Positions 14,318 through 52,747 of a stretch of 64,000 nt of DNA are shown piece by piece. The notes beneath the pieces were generated by a model, which was not told the DNA's origin, did no database searches, and was given only the letters and a program-made list of their open reading frames with translations. Made by a program: the position numbers and the translations under genes. Numbering within the stretch: position 1 is the first letter of the stretch; every line of letters begins with the position of its first letter. The stretch is taken from assembly GCF_058153355.1 (NCBI RefSeq), contig NZ_CM177019.1. One strand, given 5' to 3'.

Positions 14318-14833
14318 ATGTCCATCCGTTTTGCCCGCAAAGCCGACTGTACTGCCATTGCGGAAATTTATAACCACGCCGTGTTGTATACGGCGGCTAT
14401 CTGGAATGACCAAACGGTGGATGCAGATAACCGCATTGCCTGGTTTGAAGCGCGGACCATAGCAGGTTATCCGGTGCTGGTGAGTGAAGAAGATGGCGTA
14501 GTGACGGGATATGCCTCGTTTGGCGACTGGCGTAGTTTCGATGGTTTTCGCCATACCGTGGAGCATTCGGTTTATGTCCATCCTGATCATCAGGGCAAAG
14601 GTCTTGGGCGTAAATTGTTAAGCCGATTGATTGATGAAGCGCGGGATTGCGGGAAGCATGTTATGGTCGCCGGGATCGAATCGCAAAATCAGGCTTCGCT
14701 GCATCTCCACCAGTCGCTGGGATTTGTCATCACCGCACAAATGCCGCAGGTGGGCACTAAATTTGGGCGCTGGCTGGATCTGACATTTATGCAGTTGCAA
14801 CTCGACGAACGCAGTGAACCGGACGCAATCTGA
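14318..14833 (+). CDS. mnaT: L-amino acid N-acyltransferase MnaT (GNAT family)
   Basis: Track ORF 14084..14833 has a long spurious N-terminal extension overlapping curA; real start taken at ATG 14318 (MSIRFARKADCTAIAEIYNH...), 171 aa; GNAT motif HQGKGLGRKLL. Confidence 0.85.
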   Translation: MSIRFARKADCTAIAEIYNHAVLYTAAIWNDQTVDADNRIAWFEARTIAGYPVLVSEEDGVVTGYASFGDWRSFDGFRHTVEHSVYVHPDHQGKGLGRKLLSRLIDEARDCGKHVMVAGIESQNQASLHLHQSLGFVITAQMPQVGTKFGRWLDLTFMQLQLDERSEPDAI

Positions 14834-15282
14834 TGAATCAGTCGCTTACCCTTGCCTTTTTGATTGCCGCAGGGATTGGTCTGGTCGTCCAGAACACGCT
14901 AATGGTGCGCATCACCCAGACCTCCTCTACCATTCTCATCGCCATGTTGCTGAACTCACTGGTAGGGATTGTGCTCTTTGTTTCTATTTTATGGTTTAAA
15001 CAAGGCATGGCGGGGTTTGGCGAACTGGTGTCCAGCGTACGCTGGTGGACACTTATACCCGGCTTGCTGGGATCTTTTTTTGTCTTCGCCAGTATCAGCG
15101 GATATCAGAATTTGGGAGCGGCGACAACTATTGCAGTACTGGTCGCCAGCCAGCTAATTGGCGGTCTGGTGCTGGATATCTTCCGCAGTCATGGCGTACC
15201 ACTACGGGCGTTGATCGGCCCAATTTGTGGCGCAATTTTACTTGTGGTTGGTGCCTGGCTGGTGGCCAGGCGCACATTTTAA
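14833..15282 (+). CDS. ydcZ: inner-membrane protein YdcZ (DMT-like)
   Basis: 149-aa hydrophobic ORF; start overlaps mnaT stop (ATGA). Confidence 0.8.
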   Translation: MNQSLTLAFLIAAGIGLVVQNTLMVRITQTSSTILIAMLLNSLVGIVLFVSILWFKQGMAGFGELVSSVRWWTLIPGLLGSFFVFASISGYQNLGAATTIAVLVASQLIGGLVLDIFRSHGVPLRALIGPICGAILLVVGAWLVARRTF

Positions 15283-15517
15283 TCAGAGGATGGTGCCGCC
15301 TTTGGTTAACTGTTCGTGGCGCGCTTCCATATCCTTCTTTATGCTTGCGACCGTGATGGGCGATCGCTGTGCGCAGACGCTGCTGCTGGGTGTAGCGATC
15401 TTCCCGACTTAACTCCGCGTCATCGCTCAGGGCGATTAATAATTCGTTCATATGGGCAATGACGCTCTCTTCAATCGCGGCATCCACGCGCGCGATGACT
15501 TCATCCAGATGCGACAT
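15128..15517 (-). pseudogene. ydcY: ydcY with +1 frameshift giving altered, extended C-terminus
   Basis: First 61 codons match YdcY (MSHLDEVIARVDAAIEES...HGRKHKE); after an extra C at about 15333 the frame changes. The alternative frame reads DMEARHEQLTKGGTIL-stop, which is the expected YdcY C-terminus (77 aa in K-12, recalled from memory). Confidence 0.6.
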
Positions 15518-15602
15518 ACTTTCTCCTTAGCCACTTGTGAAATTTATCGATTCATCCAAATGATATAAGTCTGCGTGGTGCCGTCAAGCCAGTGCGTAAG
15601 AT

Positions 15603-17608: not shown

Positions 17609-18403
17609 TTATTGACCATTGTCGCCTTCGCGGGTTAGCCACCAGGCTCCCAGGATCGGCAAGGTTGTTACCAACATAACCAGCAGTGCCACGACGTTGG
17701 TTACCGGTACATCACGTGGTCGCCCAAGCTGATTGAGCAACCACAACGGTAACGTTCGTTCATGACCTGCCGTAAAGGTCGTCACGATGATTTCATCGAA
17801 CGACAAAGCAAACGCCAGCATTCCTCCTGCCAGAAGCGCCGAACTGAGATTCGGCAACACTACGTAGCGGAAGGTTTGCCAGCCATTGGCCCCAAGATCC
17901 ATTGACGCCTCAACCAGACTCCAGGAGGTGCGGCGAAAACGGGCGATGACATTGTTAAACACCACCACTACGCAAAAAGTCGCATGACCGACCACGATGG
18001 TGAAAAATCCCGGCTCCAGATTGATGGTTTTAAAAGCAGTTAATAGCGCCAGACCAGTGACAATGCCCGGCAGCGCAATGGGCAGCAGCAATAACAATGA
18101 AATGGCGCTTTTACCGAAAAAGTCCCGACGCCACAGCGCAGCAGCGGCCAGTGACCCTAATACCAGCGCAATTAATGTCGCCAGCGCCGCCACTTTAAGT
18201 GACAGTGTCACAGCATCAAGAATATCACTACGCTGTGCTGCCACGCTAAACCAGCGCAGCGTCAGGCCTTGCGGTGGAAAACTAAACGCCGCATCTTCAG
18301 TGTTAAACGCATAGGCGGCGATAATCAGGATGGGGAAATGTAGGAAAACCACGCCGCCCCAAGCCGCCAGTTTGAGGAAAAACGGTGCGCGTTCAGAGTG
18401 CAT
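17609..18403 (-). CDS. ydcV: ABC transporter permease YdcV
   Basis: 264-aa polytopic membrane protein of the binding-protein-dependent permease family. Confidence 0.85.
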
Positions 18404-19334
18404 CGAACGCTCCCAGACGTTTCACGAACGCCAGGTACAGTGCGATGAGAACAATCGGCACCAGGGTGAATGCCGCCGCCATCGGCATATTGCCAATCGC
18501 CCCCTGCTGGGAATAAACCATATTGCCGATAAAATATCCTGGAGGGCCAACCAGCTGCGGAACGATAAAATCGCCCAGTGTGAGTGAAAAGGTAAAGATA
18601 GAGCCAGCGGCAATACCCGGGATCGCCAGCGGCAGCACCACATAGCGAAAGGTTTGCCGTGGACGCGCGCCAAGATCAGCCGACGCCTGCAACAATGACG
18701 GCGGCAAACGCTCAAGCGCCGCCTGCACGGGCAGGATCATGAACGGCAGCCAGATATAGAGAAACACCAGAAAGCGCCCCAGCCCGGAAGTTGACAACGT
18801 GTTACCGCCCACCGCGGGTAATGTAAGGAACGCTGTCAGCAGTGGTTCCAGCCCCAGATGTTGTAAAAACCACTGCGCCACGCCATCTTTTGCCAGCAAT
18901 AATGTCCAGGCATAAGCTTTAACAATGTAGCTTGCCCACATTGGCAGCATCACCGCAATATAGAAGAACGCTTTCATTTTCCCGCTGGTATAGCGCGCCA
19001 TATACCACGCCATCGGAAAAGCCAGAATGGCGCTGGCGATAGTGACAGCCACAGCCATGGTTAGCGTGCGAAGGATGATGTCGTAATTCGCCGGATTAAA
19101 CAGCGCGCGGATATTCGCCAGCGTCAGTTCTGGCGTTACCGACATGGTGAAATCGTCAAAGGTATAAAAGCCCTGCCATAATAGCGTCAGCAGCGAGCCG
19201 AAATAGATGATACCAAACCACATCAGCGGACCAAGCAGCAGCAAAAACAGCCCCAGTCCCGGTTTCCGCCAGAAGAATCCTGACACCTTACCCAGATTTG
19301 GACGTGAAGGTGATTGCAATACGTTCATCGCCAT
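18393..19334 (-). CDS. ydcU: ABC transporter permease YdcU
   Basis: 313-aa polytopic permease; overlaps ydcV start by 11 nt. Confidence 0.85.
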
Positions 19335-20348
19335 TCACCTCTCCTCAACCAGCGGCACCATTACATCGCGCGACCAGGAAACCATCACCTGTTGTCCGGG
19401 CGTGAGCGTGGCAGGCAGTTCTTCGCCTGTGATATTGGCCTGACTCACCAGCAGTTTTTCACCGCCATTCAGTCTCAGTTCAAAACGGGTCGCCGCGCCC
19501 TGATACTGCACCGCCTGGATCGTGCCATTAACTTGCACTTCGCCGGGGGTGTTGAGGCGGATATGTTCCGATCTCAGGGCAAAACTGCCTATCATGCCGC
19601 AAAGATTCTCGGCCATTAGCGGCTCAAAAACGTTGGATGTCCCGACGAATCCGGCAACAAACGGCGTGCGCGGACGCATATAGAGATCGCGCGGGGAATC
19701 GACCTGCTCAATACGACCGTTGTTGAATACCGCAACACGATCGGACATCGATAACGCTTCGCCCTGATCGTGGGTGACGAAAATAAAGGTGATGCCAAGA
19801 GACTATTGCAGCTTTTTCAGCTCCAGTTGCATCTGCTCACGCAGCTTAAGATCCAGCGCGCCGAGCGGTTCATCCAGCAGCAATACGCGCGGTTCATTCA
19901 CTAACGCTCTGGCAATGGCAACCCGCTGACGCTGACCACCAGAAAGTTGTGACGGTTTACGTTGCTGTACAAATCCGAGCGCCACTTTCTCCAGCGCCTC
20001 TTGCGCCATTACGTGTCGCTGTTTTTTATCCACCCCTTTGACCATCAGCCCATAGGCCACGTTGTCAAGAATCGACATATGCGGAAAAAGCGCGTAGTCC
20101 TGGAAAACGGTATTCACGTCCCGCTCCCACGGTGGCAGATTGCTGGCGGGTTTACCAAAGATAGATATAGTCCCGCCGGAAAGCTGTTCGAATCCAGCAA
20201 TCAGGCGCAGGCAGGTGGTTTTGCCGGAGCCAGACGGCCCCAGCATTGAGAAAAACTCACCATCTTTTATCGCAATACTGACACCATCTACCGCGCGCAC
20301 ATCACCATACAGTCGCGATACGTTGTCAAACTCCACTGCGTACGTCAT
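19335..20348 (-). pseudogene. ydcT: ABC transporter ATPase ydcT interrupted by in-frame TAG stop
   Basis: N-terminal 181 codons (Walker A GPSGSGKTT, signature LSGGQRQR, Walker B LLLDEPLGALD) end at TAG (plus-strand cta at 19803-19805); reading continues in the same frame as SLGITFIFVTHDQGEA... through the C-terminal 137-aa ORF. Confidence 0.8.
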
Positions 20349-20365
20349 AAAACACCCCAGCGAAG

Positions 20366-21511
20366 TTAGCGGCCGCCCATAATGGCAATATAATCCTGCG
20401 TCCAGCGACTGTAGGGAACAAACTTGCCCCCTTCTGCTATAGGCGTTTTCCAGAAGGCGATTTTATCGAAATAGTTAAAACCGTTTGTTTCACAACCTTT
20501 TTCGCCTAATAACGGACTGGCTTTACACCCTTCCGGCACTACCGGTAACGAGCCAAACCAGGCCGCCACATCGCCCTGCACTTTTGGCGTTAATGACCAG
20601 TTCATCCATTTGTAGGCGCAAACCGGATGTTTCGCTTCGCTATGTAGCATGGTGGTGTCAGCCCAACCGGTAACGCCCTCCTTCGGGAAAACGGTAGCGA
20701 CAGGCTGGCCTTCGGCTTTCAGGGCGTTGGCCTGATAGGGCCATGCACTGGAAGCAACCACACCCTCGTTTTTGAAATCGCTCATTTGCACGGTAGTGTC
20801 ATGCCAGTAGCGATGGATCAAACTATGTTGATCGCACAGCACTTTCAGCACCGCCTGGTACTGTTCTTCGGTGAGTTGATACGGATCGCTGATGCCCAAC
20901 TGCGGCTGAGTGGCTTTAACGAACAACGCAGCATCCGCAATATAAATAGGGCCATCATAAGCCTGAACGCGGCCTTTATTGCTCTTACCGTCCGGCAGAT
21001 TCTGCGCAACAAAAACCACTTGCCAGCTATCCGGCGGCGTCGGGAAGGTTTTCGTGTTGTACATCAGCAGGTTCGGCCCCCATTGGTAAGGAGTGCCGTA
21101 AACTTTGCCGCCAACGTTAAACCAGTCGCCTTTAACCACGCGCGGATCGAGCGCTTTCCAGTTGGGAATCAATGCGGTATTAATCGGCTGCACGCGTTTA
21201 CCCATAATCAGGCGCAGCGAGGCATCGCCGGACGCCGTAACCAGATCGTAACCCCCTTTGGTCATCAGACTGACCATTTCATCGGACGTCGCGGCGGTTT
21301 TTACATTCACCGCGCAACCTGTCTCTTTTTCGAATTGCGTTACCCAGTCGTATTGTTTATCGGTTTGTCCGCGTTCGATGTATCCCGGCCAGGCGATAAT
21401 ATCCAGTCGCCCTTCCGGTTTATCTAAATTGGTGGGCGGTTCGGCGGCGTGAGCGGTCATTATTATCATGGTGAGCGCACACAGGCTGCTGCGGGCAAAT
21501 GTCTTGCTCAT
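20366..21511 (-). CDS. ydcS: periplasmic substrate-binding protein YdcS (polyamine-type ABC transporter)
   Basis: 381 aa with signal peptide; PotD/PotF-like binding protein. Confidence 0.85.
   Translation of the reverse strand: MSKTFARSSLCALTMIIMTAHAAEPPTNLDKPEGRLDIIAWPGYIERGQTDKQYDWVTQFEKETGCAVNVKTAATSDEMVSLMTKGGYDLVTASGDASLRLIMGKRVQPINTALIPNWKALDPRVVKGDWFNVGGKVYGTPYQWGPNLLMYNTKTFPTPPDSWQVVFVAQNLPDGKSNKGRVQAYDGPIYIADAALFVKATQPQLGISDPYQLTEEQYQAVLKVLCDQHSLIHRYWHDTTVQMSDFKNEGVVASSAWPYQANALKAEGQPVATVFPKEGVTGWADTTMLHSEAKHPVCAYKWMNWSLTPKVQGDVAAWFGSLPVVPEGCKASPLLGEKGCETNGFNYFDKIAFWKTPIAEGGKFVPYSRWTQDYIAIMGGR

Positions 21512-49984: not shown

Positions 49985-52747
<2,763 letters not shown>

Follow-up and report, generated by a model that had tools for sequence, protein, structure and literature searches.

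A probably genuine one-base insertion in ydcY of a rare Escherichia coli clone opens a 129-codon frame that runs antisense into ydcZ

We analyzed a stretch of 64,000 nucleotides (nt) of Escherichia coli DNA (the window; contig NZ_CM177019.1 of assembly GCF_058153355.1) with a focus on the small gene ydcY. The genes patD, yncL, ortT, ydcY, the convergent ydcZ, mnaT and curA follow one another in the standard E. coli arrangement, and the position of ydcY between ortT and ydcZ matches the conserved YdcY locus. In the window, the ATG of ydcY begins an open reading frame (ORF) of 129 codons that runs into ydcZ on the opposite strand (Table 1). Residues 1 to 61 of its product (MSHLDEV...HGRKHKE) are identical to E. 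coli YdcY, so the first-pass annotation, made from the letters of the window, was right to read the first 61 codons as this gene. The remainder of the 129-residue product, GYGSAPRTVNQRRHHPLIKMC...VLQ, is unrelated to YdcY. When aligned with ydcY of E. coli EC42405, the complete genome nearest to the window at this locus, the sequence presented 1 difference over 261 nt, namely an extra coding-strand G after codon 61. The junction AAAGAA-GAT is thereby changed to AAAGAAGGAT, that is, GAAGAT became GAAGGAT. This single difference lies exactly where an additional plus-strand C had been suspected (near 15333, in ccatatccttc). The ending expected of the native gene, DMEARHEQLTKGGTIL followed by a stop codon, had also been predicted to be present out of frame. 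It does lie at 15333..15283, but in the +1 frame relative to the ATG (its stop at 15285 is in frame 1) and not in the -1 frame that had been proposed. Finally, the predicted overlap of about 155 nt between the 129-codon ORF and the 3' end of ydcZ proved to be 155 nt.

Table 1. Features of the ydcY locus and of the ynbC remnant, with positions in the window.
Feature	Position	Strand	Description	Source
Frameshifted ydcY ORF	15128-15517	minus	ATG start, 129 codons and stop (TAA 15130..15128)	ORF list; Pfam DUF2526
Native YdcY codons 1-61	15335..15517	minus	Includes the invariant R49-x4-H54 motif	
One-base insertion	15333/15334		Plus-strand CC (in 'ccatatccttc') where relatives have C; coding-strand GG versus G	Alignments
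Displaced native ydcY 3' end	15333..15283	minus	DMEARHEQLTKGGTIL and stop, outside the frame translated from the ATG	
Out-of-frame extension	15128-15282	minus	Antisense to the 3'-terminal 155 nt of ydcZ	
ydcZ	14833..15282	plus	DMT family transporter, 149 residues, intact; convergent to ydcY	ORF list and annotation of relatives
Promoter-like site	15560..15587	minus	TTGACG-16-TATCAT, upstream of ydcY	Consensus match only
GC-rich palindrome	15251..15273		Just beyond the native ydcY stop, within the ydcZ coding end; on the plus strand, terminator-like for ydcZ	
ynbC remnant ORFs	51617..52747 and 51291..51602	minus		

Taken together, we consider it very likely that a real, heritable one-base insertion in ydcY is present in one rare E. 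coli clone and that it most likely caused the loss or a severe impairment of YdcY, leaving a young pseudogene. The distribution of the allele was determined in several sequence collections. A 461-nt query matched 5,415 of the 5,426 complete RefSeq E. coli genomes, and the three best matches differed from the window at exactly one gapped position. Among the same 5,426 genomes, a 71-mer centered on the insertion never reached 100% identity, its best matches, including K-12 MG1655, aligning 70 record bases to the 71 query bases (98.6%). A 42-mer centered on the insertion, in which the inserted base falls within every possible 28-base seed word, had no match in these complete genomes. An exact 43-mer across the insertion was absent from the GTDB species representatives as well as from the JGI metagenome contigs. 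Within the collections searched, the allele was present solely in Logan assemblies of sequencing runs. The first-pass annotation had pointed out that the long form would be the native gene if K-12 and other strains shared this sequence; K-12 lacks the extra base, no complete E. coli genome was found to carry it, and the 129-codon form is not the native gene.

The extra base could also be a sequencing or assembly artefact in a strain that truly has a normal 77-codon ydcY, as might be suspected of a single-base length change found nowhere in the complete RefSeq E. coli genomes. Moreover, another +1 allele of ydcY, with an extra A, sits in assemblies in which patD and ydcZ are also broken, which resembles indel noise. 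However, Logan assemblies of public sequencing runs include three contigs that code for the exact 129-residue product. One of these, contig 28 (91 kb) of run SRR8656992, was read at ydcY. Over 20,390 nt (window 5128-25517), it presented 0 gaps and 2 mismatches (99.99% identity), both of them single-nucleotide polymorphisms distant from ydcY (18957 and 20145). The exact truncated YnbC of the same clone, described below, is likewise found on three Logan contigs. Two of them come from SRR8656992 and SRR28786219, runs with accession numbers that are far apart. The contig of about 91 kb that bears the ydcY allele, recovered from both of these runs, carries the ynbC deletion of the clone as well. 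We infer that these three assemblies are the same three that carry the ydcY allele. No paper naming run SRR8656992 was found in our literature searches. We also took a census of the indels over the whole 64-kb window against three relatives, in which the ydcY insertion was the only indel of 1-2 nt disrupting a coding region of the window. All the others of this size lay between genes or broke a gene of the relative instead of the window. Furthermore, the change from G to GG does not involve a long homopolymer run. Because the Logan contigs encode the exact product, no other coding indel of 1-2 nt disrupts a gene in the window and the inserted base lies outside any long homopolymer, the insertion is probably not an assembly error, and we regard an artefact as improbable.

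The remainder of the window offered further signs of gene inactivation. In ydcT (19335-20348, minus strand), which codes for the ATPase of an ATP-binding cassette (ABC) transporter, a CAG to TAG change at 19803-19805 introduces a stop at codon 182 of 337 (Q182*). The 41-mer of the closest relative differs at that base only. This nonsense allele is present in the Logan contig of SRR8656992, and no complete RefSeq E. coli genome was found to carry it. In ynbC, a frame-shifting deletion of 301 bp at 51652/51653, as compared with strain 2020CK-00188, reduces the product from 585 to 376 residues, and its junction was likewise without a match among the complete RefSeq E. coli genomes. With three inactivating lesions within 64 kb, the clone seems to be undergoing gene decay, a setting in which a real ydcY mutation is all the more plausible. 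By its sequence, the window belongs to a rare lineage of E. coli. Even the nearest complete genomes share only about 98% identity with it, and the best full-coverage matches across 25 kb are approximately 95.7% identical. For the ydcS-ydcV region (18000-21000), only 24 of 5,414 genomes were at least 95% identical, the other 5,390 ranging from 90 to 95%.

The 129-residue product matched Pfam DUF2526 (PF10735) with an E value of 1.7e-37 and 127.9 bits (cut-off of 25), the match being limited to residues 1-63 (profile positions 1-63 of 77). Of the 120 best YdcY homologues listed, nearly all have a length of 77 residues. Aligned with E. coli YdcY, 26 homologues from several genera of Enterobacteriaceae, including Salmonella, Citrobacter and Enterobacter, share 82-96% identity with it, and within residues 62-77, A65, R66, L70, T71, K72, G73, G74, T75 and I76 are invariant or nearly so. 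A full-length protein of about 77 residues ending in the conserved A-R-x3-L-T-K-G-G-T-I-L is not what the window ORF encodes, this tail being in the +1 frame. An AlphaFold2 (AF2) model of YdcY (predicted local distance difference test, pLDDT, of 87.5) predicts three helices at residues 3-17, 20-31 and 38-72. According to this model, the shift at residue 62 would replace the last third of helix 3, with a new sequence beginning with GYGSAP, and would remove the GGTIL end.

YdcY has been shown to be made as a protein (Islam et al., 2015; PMC4344625). The extra G after codon 61 shifts the frame, and the resulting product keeps the predicted helices 1 and 2 along with about two thirds of helix 3. 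It loses the conserved last 16 residues and gains 68 residues of antisense-ydcZ read-through. In the mechanism that we propose, the function of YdcY would be lost or crippled, and the aberrant protein is likely to be unstable and prone to misfolding and proteolysis. The new 68-residue tail (from 15334 down) has a predicted isoelectric point of 11.7, contains 10 Arg, 9 Pro and 5 His, and matched no Pfam family. This basic, proline-rich composition is as expected from antisense read-through of a gene coding for a membrane protein. The length of the extension is fixed solely by the next stop in the antisense frame and is without significance of its own. Hence, the overlap with ydcZ is a passive by-product of the frameshift.

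Several points weigh against the view that a real insertion abolished YdcY function. The support for the base call comes from assemblies rather than from read pile-ups, which leaves a small residual doubt, and the three Logan runs may represent one strain, in which case they show a reproducible base call and not the spread of the allele in a population. With regard to the protein, AF2 models residues 61-77 with a confidence of no more than 55-71, making the structural role of the lost tail uncertain. The R49-x4-H54 motif is kept, and a residual or altered putative activity is possible.

We also considered the signals surrounding the gene. A promoter-like site precedes ydcY (Table 1), and one predicted sigma-D promoter for this gene is mentioned in the literature (PMC4344625). 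At the other end, the native stops of ydcZ and ydcY abut at 15282/15283 (TAA directly followed by TCA) with no spacer, and the two genes are convergent in the wild type. The GC-rich palindrome at 15251-15273 is the sole terminator-like hairpin. Because it sits inside the ydcZ coding end, the ydcZ and ydcY transcripts probably overlap even in normal strains. On the minus strand, the same palindrome folds into a hairpin of 7 bp that lacks a U tract (-15.5 kcal/mol; z = -1.44, not significant), and we rejected it as a terminator after ydcY. Given the weakness of this hairpin, we make no claim on non-stop mRNA or on tagging by transfer-messenger RNA (tmRNA). An internal restart at Met63 was rejected as well, on the basis of the sequence alone: the insertion creates a Shine-Dalgarno-like AAGGAT directly 5' of the ATG, with a 1-nt spacing that is too short for initiation.

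The window allele is not the only one of its kind. Counting it, +1 insertions within roughly the last 50 nt of ydcY have arisen at least three times. Each opens this 129-codon frame with its one shared stop, and they are taken as independent events because the insertion positions differ. The extra-A allele (P0100/P0093), in which GAACAG became GAAACAG after codon 67, was found on about 20 contigs, including GCA_900450225.1, and had no match in complete RefSeq genomes. An extra-G allele (P0003/P0005) has its insertion in the ydcY stop codon (SRR19580888). Like the window allele, they combine a single inserted base close to the 3' end with the antisense-ydcZ frame and a product of 129 residues. 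They differ from it in the position of the insertion and the E. coli background, and whereas the extra-A assemblies have broken neighbors, the window assembly is otherwise clean. Stop-loss and N-terminally altered variants of YdcY of 83-100 residues were also observed in public assemblies. Rare and scattered as they are, the +1 alleles fit the noise, from mutation and from sequencing, that a very large number of E. coli data sets would produce.

Alternatively, the extended ORF could be a functional novelty, either a neofunctionalized YdcY with a basic tail or a means by which translation or transcription into ydcZ modulates the expression of the latter. The recurrence of insertions opening the same frame and the retention of R49-x4-H54 would be consistent with such a role, and ribosomes translating the extension would have to pass through the palindrome (15251-15273). 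Yet the tail has no family match and is merely the antisense of ydcZ, each of the alleles occurs in few assemblies as mutational noise would, the minus-strand hairpin is weak, and ydcY and ydcZ already abut in the wild type, so that convergent transcription is not new. We find this explanation very improbable. It is equally doubtful that the 129-codon allele is alive, whether through a putative HEPN RNase motif joined to an Arg/Pro-rich tail with altered activity or partners, or through translation across the palindrome that would alter ydcZ expression. If it were alive, the recurrent +1 insertions would represent a selected route and not noise.

Inactivation of ydcY by the insertion, the explanation that we favor, is of limited importance outside annotation, where the appropriate entry is a ydcY pseudogene with a frameshift and not a 129-residue protein overlapping ydcZ. 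The case also shows how an apparent 155-nt gene overlap can arise as a by-product of a frameshift. Finally, the clone is a natural ydcY mutant, with additional lesions in ydcT and ynbC, and could help in the search for a phenotype of the conserved YdcY.

Compared with known systems, the site could at first be likened to a programmed +1 frameshift, since CAU-AAA-GAA-GGA would permit the tRNA-Lys in the P site to slip from AAA to AAG and to restore the native tail (...HKKDMEAR...) and a near-normal YdcY, but this is the least probable of the explanations considered: no stimulatory element is present, the A-site codon GAA is neither rare nor a stop and has an abundant tRNA, the allele belongs to a single clone although a programmed site would be shared among relatives, and any slippage would be at background level. 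The window site is thus unlike the prfB-type genes, lacking conservation, a slow A-site codon and a stimulatory element.

A likeness to the HEPN superfamily, with its Rx4-6H RNase fold, is seen in the R49-x4-H54 motif of YdcY, which has a polar residue after the arginine. R49 and H54 were invariant in 27 sequences, and the motif lies upstream of the frameshift. DUF2526 has been listed among the HEPN families with a conserved motif (Table 1 of Anantharaman et al., 2013; PMC3710099), a link built on HHpred-type searches (PMC3710099). In our analyses, hmmscan of Pfam-A at E <= 1 matched no HEPN family with the window YdcY, and the sole match of a profile search of the PDB at the same threshold was a spurious one to RPA. 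No RNase experiment on DUF2526 was found in the literature searched. Another comparison is with the orphan toxin OrtT (YdcX), encoded by an adjacent and co-oriented small gene upstream of ydcY. YdcY was tested as a candidate antitoxin and does not neutralize OrtT (Islam et al., 2015; PMC4344625), and ortT and ydcY do not form an operon (PMC4344625). Therefore, the loss of YdcY is not expected to unleash OrtT. The closest counterpart is ydcY of E. coli K-12 (b1446; DUF2526/PF10735), which shares with the window gene its locus, its gene order and codons 1-61, identical to the common E. coli protein. The window gene differs in the extra G after codon 61, in a product of 129 instead of 77 residues and in the missing DMEARHEQLTKGGTIL tail. 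It is a frameshift pseudogene of the ordinary sort, private to this clone and derived from a known small gene, and not a new kind of gene.
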